Shown here piece after piece: positions 27,666 to 40,505 of a stretch of DNA of 64,000 nt. The position numbers and the translations under genes were made by a program. A model generated the notes under the pieces. That model was not told the origin of the DNA. It did no database searches and saw nothing but the letters and a program-made list of their open reading frames with translations. Position 1 is the first letter of the stretch. Each line of letters begins with the position of its first letter. This DNA is from Terriglobia bacterium (GTDB taxonomy: Bacteria; Acidobacteriota; Terriglobia; JAJPHL01; JAPKYU01): assembly GCA_965206645.1 (NCBI GenBank), contig CBDBKE010000002.1:192001-256000 (forward strand). The letters are read 5' to 3'.

Positions 27666-28715
27666 TCAGGAGCGCAGCGCCTGGCAGAGGGCATCGCCCA
27701 CCTGGCGGGTGCCGGCCCGGCCGCCCAAGTCGGGCGTCCGCATTCCGGAAGCCACCACCTGCTCCACGGCCGCTTCAATCGCCGCCGCCTCGCGCTCCAG
27801 CTTGAACGAATGGCGAAGCATCAGGGCAGCCGACCCGATCGCGCCCAGCGGGTTGGCGGCGTCCTGACCGGCGATGTCCGGCGCGCTGCCGTGCACCGGC
27901 TCGTAAAGCCCGGGGCCGCTACCCAGCGAGGCCGAGGCAAGCATGCCGAGGGAGCCGGCCAGTACGGCCGCTTCGTCGCTGAGGATGTCGCCGAACATGT
28001 TCTCGGTCAGCAACACGTCGAAGGCGCGCGGGTCCGTCACCAGCCTCATCGCGCAGCTATCTACCAGGGCATGCTCCAGCTCGACGTCGGGAAATTCGGC
28101 GGCCACTTCGTTGACCACTCCCCGCCAAAACTGCGACGTTTCCAGAACGTTGGCCTTGTCCACCGAGGTCAGCTTCTTGCGGCGCCCGCGGGCCAGTTCA
28201 AAGGCGGTGCGCGCGACTCGATCGACTTCCTGGCGCGTGTAGCGCAGGGTGTTCAGCCCGTAGTCGGCGGCCAGCTCGCGCGGCGTGCCGTAGTAGATAC
28301 CACTGGAGAGCTCGCGGACCATCAACAGGTCGGTGCCTTGCACCACCTCGGCCCGTAGTGGAGAAAATCTCTCCAGCCCTGGGAGGATGCGCGCCGGGCG
28401 CAGGTTGGCGAACAGGTCTAACTCCTTGCGCAGCCGGAGCAGGCCGCGTTCCGGGCGCTTCTCGGCGGGCCAGTTGTCGAATTCCGGCGCGCCAGCCGCG
28501 CCAAACAAGATGGCAGCACAGTCCCGCGCCGCCTCCAACGTTTCCGGGGGCAGCGGGGCGCCTGTGGCGTGAATGGCCGCGCCGCCCACCAATCCTTGAC
28601 AGGTTTCCACGTCATGGCCGAAAAGTTTGGCCACTCGCTCGATGACCTTCATCGCTTCGCAGATTACTTCAACACCGATTCCGTCCCCGGGCAAAACCGC
28701 AATTTTTAAGCGCAT
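27666..28715 (-). CDS. leuB: 3-isopropylmalate dehydrogenase
   Basis: [39 protein letters not shown]. Confidence 0.97.
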
Positions 28716-28804
28716 GAACTCTTAGTGAACCTCTCTTAGCAGGATGCTCAATTTCACCCCTCACGAAAGTATTCGTATGCGGGAAGAAAATGGAAGCTTT
28801 TTTC

Positions 28805-28922
28805 TATCCGCAGACGTCGCAGAAGATGTCGCAGATTGGCACAGGTGGACACAGGCGGGCGGGCAGCCGGGACTCTTCGGGTCGAGTCTCAGCATCTGCG
28901 AACTCTGCCTAATCTGCGGATT
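28805..28922. repeat. REP-like palindromic element (ATCCGCAGA...TCTGCGGAT)
   Basis: Repeated CGCAGA units with inverted ATCTGCG units between leuA and leuB; related copies at ~37311 and ~41750. Confidence 0.55.
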
Positions 28923-28924
28923 AT

Positions 28925-30499
<1,575 letters not shown>

Positions 30500-30557
30500 C
30501 GAAACCTCCCGGGCTGACGCTCAGCGCCGAAAGTCCTAGCATGCCGGAGTTAGCCAG

Positions 30558-30602
30558 ATAACGCAAATTTATAATTCTTTTAGGAAGATAAGCTTCTGTT
30601 AT
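30558..30602. promoter_or_regulatory. Two LysR-type boxes ATAA-N7-TTAT
   Basis: ATAACGCAAATTTAT (30558-30572) and ATAAGCTTCTGTTAT (30588-30602), both T-N11-A, in the divergent leuA/LysR spacer. Confidence 0.65.
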
Positions 30603-30612
30603 AATCACCGCC

Positions 30613-31515
30613 ATGGAACTCAGCCAACTGGAAGTCTTCCTGGCCGTGGCCACCGAAAAAAGCTTCTCCCGGGCCGCCCAGCGGCTGCTGCGGACCCAGC
30701 CCGCCGTCAGCCTGGCACTGCAAAAGCTGGAGGCGGAATTAGGCGAGACGCTGGTGGACCGCTCGCTGAAAGACGGCACGCTCACCGACGCCGGACGCAT
30801 CGTGCTGGAGTACGCGCAAAAGTTTGAGAACCTGCGCCGCGACCTGAACAACGCGCTGGTGGAGCTGCGCGACAACAGCACCGGACGGCTCACCATCGGC
30901 GCCAACGAGAGCAGCGTCATCTACCTGCTGCGCCACGTCCACAACTTCCGCGCTCTCTACCCGCGGCTGAAGGTGGAGGTGCGCCGCAGCCTCTCCAGCC
31001 GAATCCCGCAGGACGTGCTGGAGAATTCGGTGGAGCTGGGCGTCATCTCCTACGAGCCTGCGGACCGCAACCTGCGGTCCATGATCATCTACACCGACCA
31101 TCTAGCGTTTGTGGTCTACCCGGGACACCGCCTCGGGAGGAAGCAGCCAGTCAAGATCCGCGATTTGGGGATCGAGACCTTTATCGCCCACAACGTCGTC
31201 TCCCCCTACCGGCAAACCGTGCTGCGCGCCTTCCAGAAGCACAAGGTGCCGCTCAACATGGAAGTGGAAATGCCCACGCTGGAGGCCATTAAGAAGGCGG
31301 TGCAGTCGCGGATGGGGGTGGCCTTTCTACCGCGGATGGTGGTGGAGCAGGAGCTGGAAGCGGGCACGCTGGTCGAGGTGCCGATCAAGGAACTGCGCGT
31401 GGAGCGCAAGATCCGCCTGCTGCACCCCGGGCGCCGCCATCTCTCCCACGCCGCCCGTGCTTTCCTGGACGTGGTGCGCCGCTCCGGCGCCGTCGAGGAA
31501 GCTGCCACCAGCTAG
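30613..31515 (+). CDS. LysR-family transcriptional regulator, divergent from leuA
   Basis: LEVFLAVA..SFSRAA..TQPAVS..LEAELG..LT.AG HTH plus substrate-binding domain. Confidence 0.95.
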   Translation: MELSQLEVFLAVATEKSFSRAAQRLLRTQPAVSLALQKLEAELGETLVDRSLKDGTLTDAGRIVLEYAQKFENLRRDLNNALVELRDNSTGRLTIGANESSVIYLLRHVHNFRALYPRLKVEVRRSLSSRIPQDVLENSVELGVISYEPADRNLRSMIIYTDHLAFVVYPGHRLGRKQPVKIRDLGIETFIAHNVVSPYRQTVLRAFQKHKVPLNMEVEMPTLEAIKKAVQSRMGVAFLPRMVVEQELEAGTLVEVPIKELRVERKIRLLHPGRRHLSHAARAFLDVVRRSGAVEEAATS

Positions 31516-31617
31516 CGCGTAAATGTGAAAGCGTGCTGAACCGCTGGGTGCCGTTTCAGCAGGCAGCTAGACATCGGCGTGCCGCTGAATATCATGCTAG
31601 GTTGTGAGGATAAATAA

Positions 31618-32850
31618 ATGCTGCAAATCTCCACCGACGAATATCGAAGGCGCTTGCAATCACTCCAGGCCAGCGTGGCGGATGCAGGCCTGGATCTGTT
31701 CATCGTTTCGGCGTTCGACAGCATCTACTACCTGACCGGTGCTGGATTCGAGCCGCTGGAGCGCCCGTTCTTTCTCTTGATTCGTCCCCAACACGCTCCA
31801 ATCCTGTTGGTGCCCAAGCTCGACCACGAGCACATGAAGAAGGCCCGCAACATCAAGGATAAGGAGCAAGACATTCAAACCTATTGGGAGTATCCGTCCC
31901 CCCCTGGCCGTGGGTGGCCGGAAAGGCTCCACGAGCTTATCGGTAGTGCCAAGCAGATCGGAGTCGAGCCCACGCTTCTTCAGGAGATTGCAGCAAAGCT
32001 GAAGGGCTACACACATCGCATCGAGCCGCTGGTCGAACGGTTGCGCCTGATCAAGTCCGACACCGAAATCGCGATGATCCGACGCGCGGCTCACTACGCT
32101 GACTTCGGGGTTAAGAGTCTCCTGGCGGCTTCGTACCGCGGCGCTACTGTTGCCGAGGGCTTTGCCCAAACCCGCGCTGTTACCTTGCGGATCATCCAGG
32201 AGGTCGATGATTGGGATTACTTTACGACGAAAGTCCTGATGGCGACGCGGCCCGCCCCTTGCAGCGCGGAGCCGCATTCGGCTCCCGACTTGTGCGACCG
32301 GCTTAACAAAGGGCCGCATGTAGCTTTAGTGCTCACCCGGGTCAACGGCTATGCGGCGGAGTGTGAGCGTACGTACTTCACCGCTCCGCCATCCCCGGAA
32401 ATCAGGAAGGCGTTCGAGACGATGAGGCAGGCTCGCCGCATCGCCTTCGATAAGGTGCGTCCCGGCATCGCGTGCAGCGAACTGGACTGTGCCTTCAACG
32501 ATTTCCTTCGGCAGGAAGGGTACAGCGGCGAAGAGGTGCGGCTGCACCGAACCGGCCACGGGTTTGGGCTGGGAAATCACGAGGCACCCTGGATCGCGGA
32601 GGGCAGTCAGGATATTCTGGCTGAGAATATGGTGATCAGCATTGAGCCGGGAATCTACCTAAAGGGGATTGGTGGCCTCCGTCATTCCGATACGGTTCTT
32701 GTAACCAAAGATGGTTGCGAGTTGCTCACTCACCTCCCGACGGACATTGGATCGCTGATGGAAACGGGGTGGAAACCGTTTCAACGCATCAAGGGGTGGT
32801 TCGTGCGGCGAGCGTTCCAATTAGATCGGAAGGCCAGAGTATCGGTCTAA
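31618..32850 (+). CDS. Xaa-Pro peptidase (M24 family)
   Basis: YYLTG, LRLIKSDTEI, HRTGHGFGL..HEAP, SIEPGIY, RHSDT. Confidence 0.9.
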   Translation: MLQISTDEYRRRLQSLQASVADAGLDLFIVSAFDSIYYLTGAGFEPLERPFFLLIRPQHAPILLVPKLDHEHMKKARNIKDKEQDIQTYWEYPSPPGRGWPERLHELIGSAKQIGVEPTLLQEIAAKLKGYTHRIEPLVERLRLIKSDTEIAMIRRAAHYADFGVKSLLAASYRGATVAEGFAQTRAVTLRIIQEVDDWDYFTTKVLMATRPAPCSAEPHSAPDLCDRLNKGPHVALVLTRVNGYAAECERTYFTAPPSPEIRKAFETMRQARRIAFDKVRPGIACSELDCAFNDFLRQEGYSGEEVRLHRTGHGFGLGNHEAPWIAEGSQDILAENMVISIEPGIYLKGIGGLRHSDTVLVTKDGCELLTHLPTDIGSLMETGWKPFQRIKGWFVRRAFQLDRKARVSV

Positions 32851-32866
32851 CCATTCGCTTCAGGCT

Positions 32867-35053
32867 TTAGAAGGCATGGAAAGCATCGAGGAGCAGGTCG
32901 CGGTATTTCTTGCGGTCGTAGCCGTGCCAGCCTTCCCACAGGGCGTAGGCGCGGACGCGGTCATTGGGGAGCGCGGACGCCGCGTCAGTGATAACGTACT
33001 CGACCGTTTGCCCCGGACGGAGCTGCACGCCTCGCCCGAACAGTTGCTGGGCGGCGACGGCGGTCAGGCTTGCTTTCTGGTAGTCGCGCGGCGGGCGGGT
33101 GAGACGCTTGCTGATCACCAAATCCTCCACCGCAACCATGCCGCTCTCCAGCCGCTCCAGGTAGCGCTCCAGCACCCCCCGGGCTTCTTCCAGCTTTTGG
33201 CGATAACTCTGGCCGTCACAGGCCTCCGCCAGGACACCCAGGACCTGTTTCTGCATCCGGGCCACCAGGGGCGGAGTGTCGTGACGGCGACACTCCAGGC
33301 CCCGCACCTTCAGCTCCGCTTCCTCGCTGACCGCGAAGAAGCGGTTGGGCACCGGCACATCGGCAAATCGCTTGGAGGGCAGGAACACGATGTAGCGATA
33401 CAGAGCCTCCAGGGCAATGGGCAACCCGGTCCGCTCGCGAATTTCCTCGGCCAGCGCCAGGTAATCTTCCCGGGCGGCCTTTGGTTTCTGCACGTACATG
33501 CTGTCCACGATGGCGTGCAGGACGCGGAAGCCGCGCTGCTCGGCCGCCTCCTTGGCCACCAGTAGCTGCTCGCGCCCGATGGCATTGATGCTCTCGTGAG
33601 CCTCAATCTTGCCCAGCCGGGCGTTCTTGTACCCCAAATAGCCGAAGCAGCAAACCAGCAGCCATTTCTGCGCCTCCCGCCGGCGCCGGTATGTTTCCAG
33701 CAGGGCGGCGTCCGCGCTCTGCCGCATGCGCTCTTTGTACCGCTGCCGCTTTTCAATCAGCGGGGCGACGGTGCGTCCCACCACTCCTTGCCGCTTGCGG
33801 CAGATGCGGTAGCCCACCTCGGGAATGGGCGGGCTCTCCGGGCAGCAGCGGCAATTCACCGTCTCCGACGACACATTGAAGTGCACCATGATGCTGGGGA
33901 ACTGGGAGGGGAAGTCCAGCTCGGCCACGTTCTCGTGGAACCCCAGGATGGGCGGGAAGACCAGCCCGCCGCGGTCGGCGATCAGAAGCTGGTCGGGGTG
34001 CTTGAAGTCTTCCGGCTCGCTCTTCTGCTCCGGGATGAGGATGCCGTCGCGGTAGGCCACTTCCATCTGCATGTAAGAGATGCCCGTGCCGGGGGTCGTG
34101 CGGGCGGCATACTGCACCGGCAGCTTGGTGAGACGGGCCAGCTCCCACAGCCCGTCCTGCTGGCAGTGGTCGGCAATGAAGGAATTGCTCAGGTCCACGT
34201 GCAGCCGCCCGTAGAGCGTGGTGGCGCTGTCCTTGAACAGAATCCGCCCGTAGCTCATAAAGCTTCGGGCGCGGCTCTGGTGCACCGGCAGGCTGGCATC
34301 CCGGTTGAGCGGCAGGGGAAGGTTCAACCGCTGGGCTTGCTGGCGCAGGAGCGGAAAGATGGTGGAGTCGCCCCACTCGGTGAGGATCAAATCCGGGTCG
34401 TGCCGCTCCACCAAGCGCTGTACCGTGATCACCGCAGGCTCGGCGGATTCCTCAATGACCGAGCACTCGCCGTCCACCTCCACTTCCAGCGCACCGCGCC
34501 GCCCGTGCCGGGGGTTGACCGCCGAAAGCCCTTCCAGCCGCAGGTGCATCACCTGGAGCGGCGGCAGTGGGTAGTCTAGCGCCCACTCGCTGTCCTGGCA
34601 CTGGAGGGCAAGTACCTGCCCGTCGTCGTCCACCTCCACCTCCACTCGGGCGAAGGGGAACACCCGCTTCTCCCAGCAATAGAGGGGGGCGAGCATGAGG
34701 TCACTGTTGTAGAGCCGTAGGTCGGGGTCGAACCGATGAACCCAGCGCACCCAGGAGGCAAACGCGGTGGGGTACGGGACAGTGATCTCCAGCACCTGAA
34801 GCGGCGTTGGCTGCCACAGATCGGCGCGCTCCCTCAGGCAGCACCTCAGCGGGGTCCGCCGCCCGAGGGCCTCCTGAAGCCGCCGCAGCCGGGCCGGAGC
34901 GCCGTGCGCGAAGAAGGCGGGCGTAAACGGATCAATCAGCCGGTGGCGCTTCTGGCTCTCTTCGATCAACCACAGGGTCATCCCCTGCGGGCTGGGGTAG
35001 AGGTCCAGGAGCCATCCCTGTAGTCGGCCCCGTAGTCGGCCCTGCAGTCGCAT
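32867..35053 (-). CDS. Family B DNA polymerase, PolB2/G2-type
   Basis: Motif A LDFPSQFPSIM, motif B KWLLVCCFGYLG, motif C HAIVDS (first Asp of DTDS replaced), KVRGLE.RR.D; degenerate exonuclease region. Confidence 0.88.
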   Translation of the reverse strand: MRLQGRLRGRLQGWLLDLYPSPQGMTLWLIEESQKRHRLIDPFTPAFFAHGAPARLRRLQEALGRRTPLRCCLRERADLWQPTPLQVLEITVPYPTAFASWVRWVHRFDPDLRLYNSDLMLAPLYCWEKRVFPFARVEVEVDDDGQVLALQCQDSEWALDYPLPPLQVMHLRLEGLSAVNPRHGRRGALEVEVDGECSVIEESAEPAVITVQRLVERHDPDLILTEWGDSTIFPLLRQQAQRLNLPLPLNRDASLPVHQSRARSFMSYGRILFKDSATTLYGRLHVDLSNSFIADHCQQDGLWELARLTKLPVQYAARTTPGTGISYMQMEVAYRDGILIPEQKSEPEDFKHPDQLLIADRGGLVFPPILGFHENVAELDFPSQFPSIMVHFNVSSETVNCRCCPESPPIPEVGYRICRKRQGVVGRTVAPLIEKRQRYKERMRQSADAALLETYRRRREAQKWLLVCCFGYLGYKNARLGKIEAHESINAIGREQLLVAKEAAEQRGFRVLHAIVDSMYVQKPKAAREDYLALAEEIRERTGLPIALEALYRYIVFLPSKRFADVPVPNRFFAVSEEAELKVRGLECRRHDTPPLVARMQKQVLGVLAEACDGQSYRQKLEEARGVLERYLERLESGMVAVEDLVISKRLTRPPRDYQKASLTAVAAQQLFGRGVQLRPGQTVEYVITDAASALPNDRVRAYALWEGWHGYDRKKYRDLLLDAFHAF

Positions 35054-35309
35054 GGTCTCTCTCCGCTTGCCACAGGCGTTGCTCAAGTGCGCGCAATCGC
35101 TTCTCCTGGTCCAGCGCGATGGACAGCAGGATGGCTTCCATTGGATTGTCGCTCGCCTGGTAGGTCGCCGCCTGCGTGTAGGAGCGGACGCGCAGGAACA
35201 GGCGGTCGAAGTGTTGCTGATCCTCCCGCCGCAGCGCCCGGCGGAACTTTGCCCATCGCTCTACCGCCTGATCAATCAGCTGGCGAAAAGTTGGGACAGT
35301 GCGACCCAT
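34932..35309 (-). CDS. PolB2-associated small helical protein (PPB2-like)
   Basis: MGRTVPTFR...W..FRRALRREDQ..FDRLF..EAILLSI; lies between iRadA and PolB; frame runs 122 nt into polB. Confidence 0.8.
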   Translation of the reverse strand: MGRTVPTFRQLIDQAVERWAKFRRALRREDQQHFDRLFLRVRSYTQAATYQASDNPMEAILLSIALDQEKRLRALEQRLWQAERDHATAGPTTGPTTGMAPGPLPQPAGDDPVVDRREPEAPPAD

Positions 35310-35316
35310 CGCGCCC

Positions 35317-35937
35317 TCAAGCAGGTAATCGCAGGCGGGAGCGTTCGCAGAGCAGTTGCGGCTTTCCGTCCGCTTGCAGCATGAACCTCCACACCTGGTC
35401 TGCCCCGGCAACCACCCGGTCGAACAATCTTCTTCGCGGCGTGGTGAAGGAGGCAGCGTCGGAGAACACCGCCACCGGCAGCGACGCGCGCCCCAGTTGC
35501 CTCAGTTGTTGCAGGGCCTGCCCGAAGGAGGCGTACGCGGCACCATCGGGCACGTCTTCATCGAAATACAAATCCGGGAAGGCCGTGACGATCAGAATGT
35601 CCGCCGGGAAGGCTCGAAGCGCCCGTGGCACCCGGGCCAGCAATTCGGTGAGCTGGAAACAGGTGAAGGCGCGGGCGACTTTTATCCGGCGATTGAACTC
35701 CGCCGGCTCACGTCCGCGCTGCCGCGCAAAGCGCGCGATCAGCAGAGGGTCCACCCGGTTGGCGCCGTCCAGGTACAGGACATGCTTGCCGGCGAGAAAG
35801 ACCCGCGGAAGGAAATAGTGAGAAAGCCGCGCCGCGCAACCCTCCCCCTGAAAGACTGCTAACCCCTGCGCGGGCAGCCGCCAGGGTTGCCCTGCCACAG
35901 GGAGACGAAGGCTCGGGGTTGCAGGCGCCAAACTCAT
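35317..35937 (-). CDS. Inactivated RecA/RadA-like protein (iRadA/ImuA-like)
   Basis: VLYLDGANRVDP, VARAFTCFQL, LYFDEDV, ADQVW; no GxxxxGKT Walker A. Confidence 0.75.
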   Translation of the reverse strand: MSLAPATPSLRLPVAGQPWRLPAQGLAVFQGEGCAARLSHYFLPRVFLAGKHVLYLDGANRVDPLLIARFARQRGREPAEFNRRIKVARAFTCFQLTELLARVPRALRAFPADILIVTAFPDLYFDEDVPDGAAYASFGQALQQLRQLGRASLPVAVFSDAASFTTPRRRLFDRVVAGADQVWRFMLQADGKPQLLCERSRLRLPA

Positions 35938-35996
35938 AGAGGCCAAGCCGCACTCGGGGCGTTGCGGGCAGTCACTCAGCAATCGCTAACAAATTC

Positions 35997-36025
35997 ATGG
36001 TAGGCGAATTAAAAGCGAAAGTCAA
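35997..36025 (-). promoter_or_regulatory. Sigma70 promoter TTGACT-N17-TACCAT with a TTCGC-N6-TTCGC direct repeat (candidate LexA box) in the spacer
   Basis: Minus strand reads TTGACT TTCGCTTTTAATTCGCC TACCAT; resembles the GTTC-N7-GTTC Acidobacterium LexA box. Confidence 0.7.
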
Positions 36026-36119
36026 TAGGCGAGCTTCCGGCAAAGAAGCCATTTATTTGCAATCATTTGAGTTTGTTCAGGAAGTTCTGTCCTGAGTCCT
36101 AGGAAATGCCAAGCGGATA

Positions 36120-36198
36120 GCGCTGCCTCAGGCGGCAGCGGCACACTTCAGCCTCCCACCCTGGCGGCTGGCCGTGGCGCTTTAAAAGCGCCACTACG
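36120..36198. repeat. Hairpin pair / REP-like element downstream of the HMA gene
   Basis: CGCTGCC...GGCAGCG and GTGGCGCTTT-A-AAAGCGCCAC inverted repeats. Confidence 0.4.
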
Positions 36199-36215
36199 AA
36201 TCAACCAACGGCAAA

Positions 36216-36530
36216 CTACTTCTTCTTGACCTTGGCGTCGTACCGGCTCATCCCGCGCGCCTTCTTCACCGCTTGGATGAGGTCGTCGACTTTGCAGACC
36301 TCGGGGTCGTATTTCACGACGGCCTCGTTGTCCGTCAGTGAGACCTTCGCTTCCTTGACGCCCTTCACCTCTTGCAGTGCGGACCGCACTGTGCTGGCGC
36401 AGGCGTTTCAGGTCATGCCGCTGATTGCGAGCGTGACAGTCTTCTCCTTGCCGGCCACGGCGTGCTGCGCGGCAACCAGCGGCCCCAGCAGCAACAGCCC
36501 AATGCCAAACAAGCTTCCTAGCCTGGTCAT
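36216..36530 (-). CDS. Secreted heavy-metal-associated (MerP/CopZ-like) selenoprotein candidate, GMTUxxC
   Basis: RBS AGGAGG, ATG 36530, signal peptide, TVTLAISGMT-TGA-NAC..VRSAL..VKGV..AKVS..AVVKYDP; TGA (36408-36410) at the first Cys of GMTCxxC; 104 aa with readthrough. Confidence 0.85.
36375..36391 (-). other. Candidate bacterial SECIS hairpin
   Basis: CAGTGCG-GTC-CGCACTG, starting 17 nt after the UGA; apical GGUC resembles the fdhF SECIS loop. Confidence 0.65.
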
Positions 36531-36583
36531 AGCTCCACCTCCTTCGGGTTTAGCCTGTCGAGCAGATTCTAGCACAAAGGCGC

Positions 36584-37294
36584 TCATCCGGCAGTCCGTG
36601 GGCGAAAGGCGCGCAGATCTTCCAGGCGCAGGCGGCCGGTATAGACCGCCATGCCCAGCGCGGCATGGATCCCCAGCTCATCGAGGGCAGCGATCTCTTC
36701 CAGGGTGGCAATGCCACCGGCAGCGGTGATGGGCCGTGAGGTGGCCTGGCGGAGTCGGCGGAACCACTCCAGGTCGGTTCCGGTCATGGTTCCTTCGTTG
36801 TCCACGAAGGTGCACAGGAACTCGCCACAGTAAGGCTCTAGCTCGTGCACGATCTGCTCAGCCGCCAGCCCGGTGGACTCGCGCCAGCCCCGCACTACGA
36901 TGCGGCCATGGTGGGAGTCCAGCGCCAGGATGATGCTCGCGGCGCCGGCGGCGTCCCGCAGCGATTCCAGGAACGGCGCGTTGACCCCCTGGCTGTGAAA
37001 GGCGGCGGTGCCGACAATCAGCTTGCTCGCCCCCGTACCGAGCAACTGCTCGGCGCGGGCCGTGGTGCGCACGCCGCCGCCCACGCGGCAGCGCGCGCGG
37101 GCGCAGAGCTGGCGCACCAAAGGGTCGTTGCTTCCTCTGCCCATGGCGGCATCCAGGTCAATGAGCTGGATTTCAGGGAAGCCGGCGAACTCCTCCAGTT
37201 GTCCCAGAACGTCGGCGCGCTCCAGGGCCTTCGTCTGGCCGCGCACCAGTTGCACCGCCTTACCGTCCATCAAATCAATGCAGGGAATAATCAT
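36584..37294 (-). CDS. hisA: ProFAR isomerase
   Basis: IIPCIDLMDGKAVQL, IDLDAA, VGGGVR, EGTMTG.D, AAGG. Confidence 0.92.
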   Translation of the reverse strand: MIIPCIDLMDGKAVQLVRGQTKALERADVLGQLEEFAGFPEIQLIDLDAAMGRGSNDPLVRQLCARARCRVGGGVRTTARAEQLLGTGASKLIVGTAAFHSQGVNAPFLESLRDAAGAASIILALDSHHGRIVVRGWRESTGLAAEQIVHELEPYCGEFLCTFVDNEGTMTGTDLEWFRRLRQATSRPITAAGGIATLEEIAALDELGIHAALGMAVYTGRLRLEDLRAFRPRTAG

Positions 37295-37310
37295 GGGGCA
37301 ATCCCCAGAG

Positions 37311-37357
37311 TTCGCAGATTCCGCAGAAAAAGAAATCTGCGCAATCTGCGGATTCAT
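37311..37357. repeat. REP-like palindromic element
   Basis: TTCGCAGATTCCGCAGA...ATCTGCGCAATCTGCGGATTC between hisF and hisA. Confidence 0.55.
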
Positions 37358-37364
37358 TAAACTC

Positions 37365-38126
37365 CTATTCGATCATGCGCATGGGGACACCGCGCTGGTC
37401 GAGGTAGCGCTTCAGGTCGCTGACGGGAATCTCGGCGTAGTGGAAGATGGAGGCGGCCAGCGCCGCGTCGGCCTGCCCTGCGGTCAGCACGTCATAGAAA
37501 TGCGCCGGCTCACCGCCGCCGCCGGAGGCGATGACGGGGATGCCCACCGCGCGGGCCACCGCCCGGGTCAGATCGCAATCAAAGCCAGCCTTGGTGCCGT
37601 CGCAATCCATCGAGGTCAGCAGGATTTCCCCCGCACCCAGCCGCTCCCCCTCCGCGGCCCAGGCTACCGCGTCTCGCTCAACCGGGCGGCGCCCGCCGTA
37701 GGTGTAAACAGGCCAACCCTTTCCTTCACGCTTTGCGTCTATGGCCAGCACCACCGCCTGAGCGCCAAACTCGCGAGACAGCTCGGTGAGCAACTCCGGG
37801 CGCTCCACCGCTGCCGTGTTCACCGAAACCTTGTCGGCGCCGGCGCGCAGCAGGCGCCGAGCGTCCTCCACGGTGCGCACGCCGCCGCCCACCGCCAGCG
37901 GGATGAATACCTTCTGCGCTGTGCGCTCCACGATCTCGACCATCAGCCCGCGCCCTTCGGCCGACGCGGTGATGTCCAGGAACACCACCTCGTCAATGCC
38001 CACTTCGCTGTAGGCGGCCGCCAGGGCAGGCGGATCGCCGGCGTCCCTCAGGTTGACGAAGCGGACGCCTTTGACCACGCGCCCGTCCTTCACGTCGAGG
38101 CAGGCGATGATGCGCTTGGCTGGCAT
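37365..38126 (-). CDS. hisF: Imidazole glycerol phosphate synthase cyclase subunit
   Basis: [43 protein letters not shown]. Confidence 0.97.
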
Positions 38127-38737
38127 TGCTCAACCCAGGTCCGCAGGAAATTGAGTCCGGCCGACCCCGATTTTTCCGGATGGAACTGGGTGCCGACCAA
38201 GTTGGCGCGGCGCAGAACCGCGGTGAACGGCAACCCGTGGCGCGCGACGGCCGCGCAGCCCTCGGCGTCGCCGGGGACGTAGTAGGAATGGGCGAAGTAA
38301 TACATGCGGCCGCATGTTTGAGCGAGGAAGGCTTGAGCGAGGAACGCGCCTGCTTTGGCGCCGCCAGGCTCAACCTCGGCCCAGCCCATGTGCGGCACCT
38401 TCTGGCCGCTGGGGAAGCGCCGGACCCGGCCCGGAAGCAGAGCCAGGCCGCGTAGCCCCGGTGCCTCTTCGCTTGATTCGAACAGCGCCTGCATGCCCAG
38501 GCAGATGCCCAGGTAGGGCGTGCCGGACTCGAGCCTCTGGCGCAACGGGGCGGCCAGTCGGTCGGCCTCCAGCGCCTCCATCATCTGCCCGAAATGTCCG
38601 ACCCCTGGCAATATGATGGCCGAGGCCTGCTCCAGCCCCGGTGGCTCCTTGGTGACGAAAAACTCGGCGCCCAGCACGGCCAGCGCATTCGACACCGAGC
38701 GCAGATTCCCCGCCCCGTAATCAATGACAGCAATCAT
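38090..38737 (-). CDS. hisH: Imidazole glycerol phosphate synthase glutaminase subunit
   Basis: [34 protein letters not shown]. Confidence 0.96.
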
Positions 38738-38761
38738 AGGTTTTACGATCAAATACAAAGT

Positions 38762-38828
38762 CACCAAGAACACAAAGGTCACAAAGCAAAATTCTTTGTG
38801 TCCTTAGGTGCCTTTGTGACTTTGTGTT
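38762..38828. repeat. Palindromic CACAAAG/CTTTGTG repeat element
   Basis: AACACAAAGGTCACAAAG...CTTTGTG...CTTTGTGACTTTGTGTT between hisB and hisH. Confidence 0.55.
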
Positions 38829-38834
38829 GTCTTT

Positions 38835-39428
38835 TCACAACAGGCCTTTGGTGCTGGGCAGCTCGCGGGCCAGCCGGCGGTCGCGCGAGCTGGCCACGCG
38901 CATCGCGCGGGCCAGCGCCTTGAACAGCCCCTCGACCTTGTGGTGCGAGGAGCGGCCGTAGAGCAGCTTCAGGTGGACGTTGGCCCGGGCGTGGGTGGCA
39001 AAGCCGCCGAAGAAGTCTTCCAGCAATTCGGCTTGCAGGTCGCCCACCCGGCGCACGCGCAGCGGCGCCTGATACACCAGCACCGGGCGCCCGCTGAAAT
39101 CCACTGCCGCCAGGGCCAGCGTCTCGTCCATGGGCATCAGGAAATAGCCGGCGCGGTTGATGCCGCGGCGGTCGCCCAGGGCGCGGTCAAAGCACTGGCC
39201 AAGCACGATGCCCACATCCTCGACGGTGTGGTGCTGGTCCACGTCCAGGTCGCCGGCCGCGCGCAGTTCGAGATCGAAGCCGCCGTGCTTGGCAAACAGC
39301 TCCAGCATGTGGTCCAGGAAGCGCACGCCGGTGCGGACGCGGGCGCGGCCACGGCCGTCCAGCACGAGCCGTGCGCGAATTTGCGTTTCCGTCGTGTTGC
39401 GCTCGACTTTGGCTGTGCGTCGCTTCAT
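38835..39428 (-). CDS. hisB: Imidazoleglycerol-phosphate dehydratase (monofunctional)
   Basis: [33 protein letters not shown]. Confidence 0.97.
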
Positions 39429-39461
39429 AAACTCTGGACAGGCAAGGATGCCTGTCCCTCC

Positions 39462-40505
39462 TCAGAGCAGCTCGCGCAGCGCCTGGATGAGCCGGCGCGT
39501 TTGCGCCTGGGTGCCCAGGGTAAAGCGGAGGCTGCCGGGCAGCTCGTAGCTGCGGTCGCGCGCCAGGATGCCGCGCGCCCGCAGGGCGTCGCGGACGGCG
39601 CGGGCGCGCTCGCCCAGCCGGGCCAGAATGAAATTAGCTTGGCTGGGTACGTAGGGGATTCCCTGGCGGCGGAACTCGCGCTCCAACATCGCGCGGGAGC
39701 GCAGCACTCCTGCAACATATTTCTGCACGTATTCGCGGTCCGAGACCGCTTCCAGCGCCGCCGCCAGCGCTGCTGAGTTTACGCTATAAGGTGACTGCGC
39801 TTTGGCCATCGCAGCGGCAGTCTCGCGGTGGGCAAACAGGCACCCAATCCGCAGCGCGGCCAGCCCGTAAGCCTTGGAGAAGGTGCGCGAGACCAGCAGG
39901 TTCCGGTAGCGCTCCACCAGCGGCAGCACGGTGCGTTCGTAAAACTCGAAGTAGGCTTCGTCCACCAGTACCAGCGTCTCGGGAAATTCCGACGCCAGCG
40001 ACTCAATCGCTTCCGGGGTCACCGCCGTGCCCGTCGGGTTGTTCGGATTGGCAATGAAGATGGCCCGGACCGGGTTGCGGCGCGCTTCTTCCCGTACCGC
40101 CTCGACCGGGAACACCAGGTCTTCACCACAATGCACGTCCACAACCTCAGCTCCGGTCAATGAGCCGTAAAACCGGTAGATGGCAAAAGTGGGTTCGGCC
40201 ACGATCACCCGCCGGCCCGCGTCCACAAAAGTGGAGAGGGCAAGTTGGATGGCCTCGTCGGTGCCATTGGTGATCAAGGTCTCCTCGGGGGCACGCTCGA
40301 ATGCGGTAGCCAGCCGGCCGCGGGCCGACTCGTACTCGGGGTAGGTGGCCAGCCGCTCGCGGCTCAGGTGGCGGCGGAGCTGGCGGAGCACGCGCGGCGA
40401 GCATCCCACCGTGTTCTCGTTGAAATCCAGGCGCAGGTGGCCTTCCCGCCCGGCCGAAGGGGGCGAGTAGGGCCGCATGCGCAGCACGGCGTTGCGGGGC
40501 TTCAT
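39462..40505 (-). CDS. hisC: Histidinol-phosphate aminotransferase
   Basis: LDFNEN, NGTDEAI, NPNNPTG, DEAY, RTFSKAYGLA.LR.G. Confidence 0.96.
   Translation of the reverse strand: MKPRNAVLRMRPYSPPSAGREGHLRLDFNENTVGCSPRVLRQLRRHLSRERLATYPEYESARGRLATAFERAPEETLITNGTDEAIQLALSTFVDAGRRVIVAEPTFAIYRFYGSLTGAEVVDVHCGEDLVFPVEAVREEARRNPVRAIFIANPNNPTGTAVTPEAIESLASEFPETLVLVDEAYFEFYERTVLPLVERYRNLLVSRTFSKAYGLAALRIGCLFAHRETAAAMAKAQSPYSVNSAALAAALEAVSDREYVQKYVAGVLRSRAMLEREFRRQGIPYVPSQANFILARLGERARAVRDALRARGILARDRSYELPGSLRFTLGTQAQTRRLIQALRELL

Follow-up and report, generated by a model that had tools for sequence, protein, structure and literature searches.

A putative LexA-controlled iRadA-PPB2-PolB2 operon of archaeal ancestry in a Terriglobia bacterium

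Our analysis concerns an operon of three genes, encoding an inactivated RadA-like protein (iRadA), a small helical protein (PPB2) and a family-B DNA polymerase (PolB2), in a 64,000-nucleotide (nt) stretch of DNA from a Terriglobia bacterium (GenBank assembly GCA_965206645.1, contig CBDBKE010000002.1, positions 192,001 to 256,000 of the forward strand). This whole stretch is called the window, and positions are counted from its first letter. An earlier note on the same DNA, made from the sequence, had described the cassette and had proposed that it encodes an SOS-controlled mutagenic polymerase complex. The list of open reading frames, with starts refined by alignment with relatives, places three co-directional genes on the minus strand at 32867-36025. 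iRadA (35317-35937, minus strand, 206 amino acids, aa) is assigned an ATG start whose position aligns with the starts of many relatives, and its open frame reaches back to a TTG at 35982. After a gap of 7 nt it is followed by PPB2 (34932-35309, minus strand, 125 aa), with the N-terminus MGRTVPTFR, and then by PolB2 (32867-35053, minus strand, 728 aa), which begins MRLQG and whose open frame reaches back to a TTG at 35086. PolB2 and the 3' end of PPB2 overlap by 122 nt in different frames, as they also do in relatives. Because of the 7-nt gap and this overlap a single transcript for all three proteins is likely, and no convincing terminator was found between the three genes.

A promoter scan of positions 32500-36700 returned a sole sigma-70-like site (shuffle mean 0.5), located on the minus strand at 36025-35997 and reading TTGACT-17 nt-TACCAT. 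The -35 hexamer TTGACT occupies 36020-36025 and the -10 hexamer TACCAT occupies 35997-36002 (both minus strand); TTGACx is kept in the operon promoters of relatives, which also carry TAnnnT at the same place as the -10 hexamer. The whole 17-nt spacer between the hexamers (36003-36019, minus strand) is filled by a candidate LexA operator, TTCGCTTTTAATTCGCC. As the earlier note had pointed out, this spacer consists of TTCGC-N6-TTCGC, here followed by a C, with the two half-sites at 36019-36015 and 36008-36004 and thus 11 bp apart.

Analysis of the three proteins began to define the cassette. Pfam hardly detects iRadA, the Rad51 family matching at an E value of just 0.024. A profile built from 27 homologues matched Pyrococcus RadA at 4.1e-8, followed by Rad51 and Dmc1. 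The AlphaFold2 model of iRadA (predicted local distance difference test score, pLDDT, 88.2) retrieved the cores of RadA, Rad51 and Dmc1 as top Foldseek matches (E value about 1e-10, template modelling score 0.68), and the N-terminal helical domain is missing from the protein. At the Walker A position stands GEGCAARL, which lacks GK followed by S or T, and the strand of Walker B reads ILIVTAF versus LLIVDSL in Pyrococcus RadA. Judged by profile and predicted fold, iRadA is a RadA/Rad51 core protein with degenerate Walker A and B motifs, in agreement with the RecA-like protein lacking Walker A of the earlier description. In two relatives (L015 and L018) iRadA ends in QLRLFQ and QLSLFQ, respectively; a beta-clamp motif of the QLxLF type in iRadA or PolB2 has been reported for a fraction of such operons (PMC11791011).

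PPB2 has no Pfam or NCBIfam family, and the NCBIfam scan was likewise without a match for iRadA. The residues M1, G2, R3, T4 and T7 of PPB2 are invariant in 24 homologues (from Acidobacteriota, Bacteroidota/Ignavibacteria and one Nitrospiria record). Its AlphaFold2 model (pLDDT 78.5) has a free N-terminal arm, three predicted helices (8-24, 28-47 and 56-88) and a disordered tail, consistent with the small helical protein noted before. Searched for similar folds among 48,161 chains, this model matched generic helical structures only (Z of 6.0 or less), and the likeness to a sigma-factor N-domain described for PPB2 in PMC11791011 was not recovered. At a number of related loci (L093, L095, L103, L107, L109, L111-L116, L125, L135, L147, L151, L153 and L155) a longer frame of 144-216 aa starts with MGRT, without a distinct iRadA frame that ends directly upstream of it. 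At these loci GCTATACA-like sequence, not TTGACA, flanks the promoter box. Their layout probably reflects an iRadA-PPB2 fusion or another arrangement already in print.

PolB2 carries the only DNA_pol_B match in the genome (Pfam, 2.6e-32). Against NCBIfam it matched the archaeal-type PRK05761 models best (NF004416 at 1.5e-110, below the cut-off), with the DNA polymerase II (Pol II) models at 9.3e-17. Searched against the PDB, a nine-homologue profile gave Thermococcus 4k8z at 9.7e-75, with Thermococcus and Pyrococcus family-B enzymes all near 1e-74, Sulfolobus PolB1 (1s5j) at 1.9e-37, and E. coli Pol II (3k57) at only 4.9e-15. These comparisons make PolB2 a family-B polymerase of archaeal type that stands closer to archaeal PolB than to Pol II. 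An E. coli-type DNA polymerase II was considered and rejected, the Pol II model NF004421 giving 60.6 bits against a cut-off of 570 and motif C reading IVD instead of an intact DTD. Two of the findings that the earlier note had named as adverse, a grouping with Pol II and a polymerase acting alone, are both argued against, the first by the profile and NCBIfam results and the second by the membership of PolB2 in a conserved operon with partner genes.

The catalytic motifs of PolB2 are altered as the note had stated. Motif C, HAIVDS (H513-S518), aligns with YSDTDG of 4k8z, such that the first Asp of DxD is replaced by Ile, and motif B is KWLLVCCFGYLGY (KWLLVCCFGY), with CC in place of NS. Motif A (ELDFPSQFPS) retains its Asp, D380, which is invariant, and D517, the second Asp of motif C, is invariant in the nine homologues. 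Both of these Asp residues, and the Lys of motif B as well, stay unchanged among PolB2 homologues whose identities span 43-96%. Where the Exo I residues of 4k8z align, PolB2 reads LALQCQD with no acidic pair, in a weak N-terminal alignment of 40 bits; the residues concerned are those that we take to form Exo I in the wild-type enzyme. The protein also contains a Cys cluster (NCxCC...C). In ten genomes of the class (G116, G164, G170, G176, G234, G242, G246, G254, G270 and G274) the match to the PolB2 profile is broken into two or three parts. For eight of the ten a single open frame of 826-979 aa holds all the parts, and for G242 and G254 the frames differ or cannot be told among the matches listed. 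Extra segments therefore appear to interrupt the profile around positions 440-446 or 295/523, and they may be inteins or insertions.

These motifs bear directly on whether PolB2 makes mutations. The operon could be under damage control with a PolB2 that is not mutagenic, serving as a dead scaffold or DNA-binding factor or else filling gaps accurately, as had been suggested before 2020 for the 'inactivated' PolB2. The Ile at the first DxD position and the CC of motif B speak for such a protein, as does the first description of the family as inactivated (PMC2527604; PMC4104785). Archaeal Dpo2 has the same Ile, and it is nevertheless reported as an active enzyme that targeted mutagenesis requires (PMC11791011; PMC8764526). 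The remaining catalytic residues listed above are invariant in homologues, and the same box heads the DnaE2 mutasome cassettes with which this one alternates, as described below. We therefore regard a non-mutagenic PolB2 as fairly unlikely, and an error-prone enzyme is the reading that we carry forward.

To place the spacer repeat in its genomic setting, the 17-mer was searched with its tenth base free. The pattern has exactly three exact matches on both strands of the 4.4-Mb genome, no added match at one mismatch, and nine matches in all at up to two mismatches. The three exact sites lie in the PolB2 operon promoter, in the promoter spacer of lexA, and before a radical S-adenosylmethionine (SAM) gene resembling Rv2578c and PA0069. 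The looser pattern TTCGC-N6-TTCGC gives 14 genome matches, and an exact GTTC-N7-GTTC gives 159 and is uninformative by itself. According to the earlier note the latter pattern is bound by Acidobacterium LexA, and to go by the title of a paper it is reportedly the LexA box of Acidobacterium capsulatum. The genome has a single lexA (contig 2, 859852-860484), on the same contig as the operon and about 632 kb from it. Its product scores 176.6 bits on TIGR00498, over the cut-off, matches Pfam LexA_DNA_bind and Peptidase_S24, and contains an AAG cleavage site and the motifs GDSM and LKR. The lexA promoter, TTGACA-TTCGCTTTTCATTCGCC-CAGCAT, ends a few bases before the start codon and is built like the operon promoter, the two spacers agreeing in 16 of 17 bases. 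The radical-SAM gene encodes 336 aa (Rv2578c 4.6e-76 and PA0069 2e-71 in NCBIfam, both below cut-off).

A 17-column matrix was then built from 38 lexA-promoter sites of relatives, all of them outside the genus of this genome, and the test is therefore independent of this genome. The four highest scores belong to the radical-SAM gene (31.2), the PolB2 operon (29.0), lexA (28.8) and an MrfA-like helicase gene (25.7). The fourth box (contig 4, 1296869) abuts the ATG of an 804-aa helicase (L073:86-2500, minus strand) with DEAD, Helicase_C, HRQ1 winged-helix and MrfA Zn-binding (MZB) domains. Four sites scoring at least 25 compare with 0.03 expected from a background of independent, identically distributed bases, and with 0, 0 and 0 in three second-order Markov genomes. 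An absence of the motif from other SOS genes, which the earlier note had named as adverse, is not what is seen: lexA, the radical-SAM gene and the helicase gene carry it, and recA does not. The box of the radical-SAM gene ends 8 nt before its GTG; both this gene and the helicase gene may be leaderless or have very short leaders.

The sites scoring between 20 and 25 lie in front of a Phd/YefM gene and of a LolA gene, within ileS and adjacent to a DUF5131 gene, and such sites could be chance since the Markov genomes give 0-3 sites of at least 20. The first of these boxes (24.0) lies about 200 nt before the Phd/YefM antitoxin gene. The last (20.0; contig 4, 1043937) lies about 20 nt before the DUF5131 (Gp37/Gp68-like) gene (L077:1749-2480, minus strand), and behind the latter comes a 359-aa gene that no Pfam family covers (L077:673-1752, minus strand). 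The DUF5131 and Phd/YefM genes are possible further regulon members or chance neighbours of the repeat. No box was found near dinB or near the second dnaE-like gene of this genome. The latter (contig 1, 3606-7287, minus strand) appears split into frames of 887 and 250 aa, scores 636.8 bits on the DnaE2 model, below the cut-off and below DnaE1, and has neither imuA/imuB-like genes nor a box upstream.

Among the 61 nearest genomes, lexA is present in 58. One lexA locus was taken from each of 51 genomes, seven genomes and all second copies being left out, and TTCGC-N6-TTCGC (at most one mismatch) was found within 250 nt upstream in 42 of the 51. These boxes lie nearly always between TTGACA-like and TAnnnT hexamers, and the base before the second TTC is G in only 7 of the 38 training sites. 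In family f5 a CGAACATATGTTCG-like palindrome stands before lexA at four loci, and family f4 has other repeats there (L023-L032); several genomes of these two families carry two lexA genes.

The distribution of the box at lexA also bears on the identity of its regulator. The repeat could be the operator of another damage or stress regulator that also controls lexA, the radical-SAM gene, the helicase gene and the polymerase cassettes. The classic LexA target recA lacks the box, as such a regulator would allow, and the quite different motifs upstream of the f4 and f5 lexA genes mean that assigning a motif to a regulator is not trivial in this class. Against such a regulator, LexA regulons without recA reportedly have precedent in Geobacter, to go by the title of a paper. 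Furthermore, 42 of 51 genomes carry the box within the lexA core promoter, which is the mark of autoregulation by LexA, and a direct repeat of TTC phased at 11 bp is also how the LexA box of Alphaproteobacteria, GTTC-N7-GTTC, is laid out (PMC3323433). A regulator other than LexA is in our judgement decidedly unlikely, and LexA is kept as the candidate that binds the box.

The box was then followed at the polB2 and radical-SAM loci of relatives. A scan for PolB2 relatives, with one genome per species, gave at least 565 stretches, of which the best 80 were used. They come mostly from Terriglobia, Acidobacteriota and Candidatus Acidiferrales at 52-95% identity, with a few from Bacteroidota/Ignavibacteria near 40%. 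Ten of these 80 loci had less than 900 nt upstream and were dropped, leaving 70, and across the compared loci the identity to the PolB2 of the window ranges from 39 to 95%. A box scoring at least 20 lies 0.9-1.9 kb upstream of polB2 in 59 of the 70, within a TTGACx-box-TAnnnT promoter. In some relatives (L102:1990-2050, also L009) a second boxed promoter diverges from the operon promoter, back to back with it, and no open reading frame of at least 120 aa follows this second promoter. For the radical-SAM orthologue the box was found in 29 of 30 loci, this genome and two genomes of the same genus included.

The constant position of the repeat between -35-like and -10-like hexamers would also suit an element for an alternative sigma factor or an activator, in which case the genes behind it would be co-expressed without forming a repressed SOS regulon. 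The orientation of a sigma element matters, however, and in all 29 boxed radical-SAM loci the box is inverted relative to the gene and still lies between the two hexamers; at several operon loci boxes stand back to back and face both ways. The hexamers on either side of the box are sigma-70-like in their own right. Orientation independence within the spacer therefore favours a repressor operator, and a sigma-factor or activator element is very improbable.

Results from a comparison with DnaE2, the polymerase of the ImuB-type mutasome, elaborated on the role of the cassette. Of the 61 nearest genomes, 15 have PolB2 and 29 have DnaE2 (NF004225 cut-off), with none having both (naive Fisher 9e-6). 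In a wider sample of 301 genomes of the class, each at least 90% complete, 63 have PolB2, 178 have DnaE2 and three have both, the three (G170, G176 and G274) belonging to one genus. DnaE2 is found in 3 of the 63 PolB2 genomes versus 175 of the 238 others, with a naive Fisher value of 1e-24, and because the genomes are kin both Fisher values overstate the support. The 301-genome counts include unpublished genomes, one with PolB2 (G076) and four with DnaE2 (G092, G100, G226 and G262); without them DnaE2 is found in 3 of 62 PolB2 genomes versus 171 of 234 others. A fairer figure than the P values is the number of genera that hold both PolB2-only and DnaE2-only species. On published genomes there are seven (g13, g18, g30, g34, g46, g76 and g81), and two more (g49 and g51) rest on unpublished genomes.

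The dnaE2 cassettes of relatives were examined for the box at 14 loci, taken from genomes whose lexA carries the TTCGC box. A box scoring at least 20 lies within about 4.3 kb upstream in 12 of the 14, either about 50 nt before dnaE2 or 1.8-3.1 kb upstream. At one locus the intervening genes encode a 219-aa protein of no family and a 482-aa protein with a weak Y-family match, as expected for an ImuB-type cassette.

Taken together, these results make it likely that the locus is a LexA-controlled bacterial PolB2 mutasome operon of archaeal ancestry, derepressed by DNA damage and error-prone in its product. Comparative genomics thereby supports the SOS-controlled polymerase complex of the earlier note, through the box at lexA, at the radical-SAM gene, at dnaE2 cassettes and at 59 of 70 operons. 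In undamaged cells a LexA dimer would sit on TTCGC-N6-TTCGC in the spacer between -35 and -10 and keep RNA polymerase off the promoter. DNA damage would lead to RecA filaments and these to the self-cleavage of LexA, for which the Ala-Gly site and the needed Ser and Lys residues are present. Derepression would then include lexA, the Rv2578c/PA0069-type radical-SAM gene, the MrfA-like helicase gene and the PolB2 operon together, and on the strength of its promoter and shared box the operon is very probably induced when DNA is damaged. iRadA, a PPB2 trimer and PolB2 would assemble into a complex capable of exonuclease-free, error-prone lesion bypass or mismatch extension, and in this genome that complex would fill the role of the ImuB-DnaE2 cassettes of sister species. 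What the sequences show is the genes and their motif states, the promoter, the distribution of the box and the alternation with DnaE2; LexA binding to the box, damage induction, complex formation and mutagenic DNA synthesis are what we infer.

Several observations weigh against this interpretation. recA is without a box in the 450 nt upstream, with no matrix match of at least 11 nearby. Nine of the 51 lexA loci lack the box, all in families f4 and f5 and with other promoter motifs, and so do 11 of the 70 polB2 loci (six from Bacteroidota/Ignavibacteria together with L126, L137, L139, L141 and L143). Autoregulation logic is our one ground for naming LexA as the presumptive binding protein. PolB2 is without the first catalytic Asp, and its presumed polymerase activity is taken only from the archaeal enzyme. 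A clear beta-clamp motif was not seen in the iRadA (end RSRLRLPA) or the PolB2 (end LLLDAFHAF) of this genome, no profile search having been made. The kinship of the genomes behind the Fisher values and the possible chance origin of the sites scoring 20-25 belong here as well.

A broader reading is that Terriglobia have one LexA operator and a swappable slot behind it, occupied by ImuB-DnaE2 or by iRadA-PPB2-PolB2, rarely by both, and repeatedly replaced even within a genus. We give this reading an even chance. Were it true, two polymerase machines that share no homology could stand in for each other functionally as SOS mutators, and this organism would have no damage-inducible mutagenic polymerase other than the PolB2 complex.

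The surroundings of the operon are unremarkable. The G+C fraction is 0.58-0.69 across 28000-40000 and the composition does not stand out. The neighbours are housekeeping genes, with a convergent M24 peptidase gene downstream and an HMA-domain gene and hisA upstream, and neither the composition nor the neighbouring genes around the operon give any sign of a mobile island. Within the dual-coding overlap of PPB2 and PolB2 a tandem repeat search found a 12-nt repeat of 2.9 copies (35016-35050). It lengthens both proteins, adding ...GPTTGPTTG... to PPB2 and MRLQGRLRGRLQG... to PolB2, and the extra copies are absent from a relative of the same genus. Two metatranscriptome runs of one study contain short, near-identical contigs at 33183-33416 and 33490-33644 (polB2), 35084-35293 (PPB2) and 35357-35698 (iRadA). 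A further contig (35919-36069) crosses the operon promoter and may be DNA carry-over or read-through. Since these contigs show neither a start nor a level, they are not counted for transcription or induction.

The product of the gene directly upstream of the operon (36216-36530, minus strand) has 104 aa, an N-terminus resembling a signal peptide and a heavy-metal-associated (HMA) domain (Pfam 3.3e-17, read through). Exactly where the first Cys of its metal-binding CxxC would stand there is an in-frame TGA (GMT-U-NAC), and the sequence makes this protein a candidate selenoprotein. A tRNA-Sec is present in the genome (contig 3, 716851-716945). The hairpin that follows the TGA has a folding free energy of -24.8 kcal/mol and a z score of only -1.7.

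To our knowledge bacterial PolB2 mutasomes are known only from computation. Against this background the locus gives a testable regulatory model, in the form of a 16-17-bp operator inside a sigma-70 promoter and a small set of co-regulated genes. The either/or pattern with DnaE2 predicts that PolB2 carries damage-induced mutagenesis in many soil Acidobacteriota. The model bears on mutation under stress in an abundant and poorly studied soil phylum, and on the wiring of an archaeal repair module into a bacterial SOS circuit after horizontal transfer.

Literature searches indicate that bacterial operons of PolB2, arCOG07300 and inactivated RadA, some with lexA inside the operon, were described by Makarova et al. 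2014 (PMC4104785). Timinskas et al. 2025 reported bacterial PolB2 operons, a modelled PolB2-iRadA-(PPB2)3 complex and an enrichment of lexA in the neighbourhoods (PMC11791011), with iRadA-PPB2-PolB2 as the only gene order reported for bacteria (section 3.1 of that paper). The protein features found here are those on which that work bases its definition of the bacterial PolB2 mutasome. The main texts of both papers contain no mention of Acidobacteria, an operator, or DnaE2/ImuB, and the words DnaE2, ImuA and ImuB occur 0 times in the main text of PMC11791011. In the main texts of this literature we found no operator for these operons, no place for them in a defined regulon when lexA is distant, and no near-exclusive alternation with DnaE2 cassettes under the same box. 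The novelty implied by the earlier note is accordingly reduced in one part, as the bacterial operon type and its association with lexA were already in print, and stands for the operator, the regulon and the DnaE2 alternation.

Comparison with known systems helps to place the locus. Like the GTTC-N7-GTTC LexA box of Alphaproteobacteria, the box described here is a direct repeat with 11-bp phasing and a TTC core (PMC3323433). It differs in its conserved word, TTCGC, and in the base before each TTC, which is T and A and not G. E. coli Pol II is an SOS-inducible family-B polymerase in a bacterium, as PolB2 would be, but it consists of one subunit, its exonuclease is active and its DTD intact, and PolB2 matches it only distantly. 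The E. coli Pol V mutasome (UmuD'2C-RecA) offers a functional analogy, being LexA-repressed, multi-subunit and error-prone, with a RecA-family partner and a small accessory oligomer, features that the PolB2 complex may share. In contrast, Pol V's catalytic subunit is of the Y family, its partner is active RecA itself, and the proteins are non-homologous save for the distant relation of RecA to RadA. The ImuA-ImuB-DnaE2 system is, as the PolB2 operon is likely to be, a LexA-regulated three-gene mutasome cassette, carries the same box in relatives (12 of 14 loci), has the same niche and is nearly mutually exclusive with the PolB2 cassette, whereas its catalytic subunit is of the C family, its adaptor is an inactive Y-family protein and its origin is bacterial.

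The archaeal polymerase Dpo2 is damage-inducible and takes part in translesion synthesis (PMC7390963; PMC8764526). Dpo2 of Sulfolobus islandicus is homologous to PolB2, has Ile for the first catalytic Asp, is accompanied by the same two partners and is damage-inducible. Unlike the present system it is archaeal and has been characterised experimentally. It uses PCNA and not a beta clamp. Its neighbourhoods are enriched in orc1/cdc6, and Orc1/Cdc6 homologues are reported to be central to the damage response of archaea, in which LexA has no part (PMC11791011, section 3.1). The closest likeness is to the published bacterial iRadA-PPB2-PolB2 operons, which share the gene order, the replacement of the first DxD Asp, the MGRT arm of PPB2, an iRadA without ATPase motifs and a link to SOS. 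In those operons the SOS link comes from a lexA in or near the operon (for example in Leptospirillum ferriphilum), whereas here lexA is distant and the two share an operator. The cassette itself therefore belongs to a published operon type, and what is new at this locus is the candidate operator, its regulon and the alternation with DnaE2.

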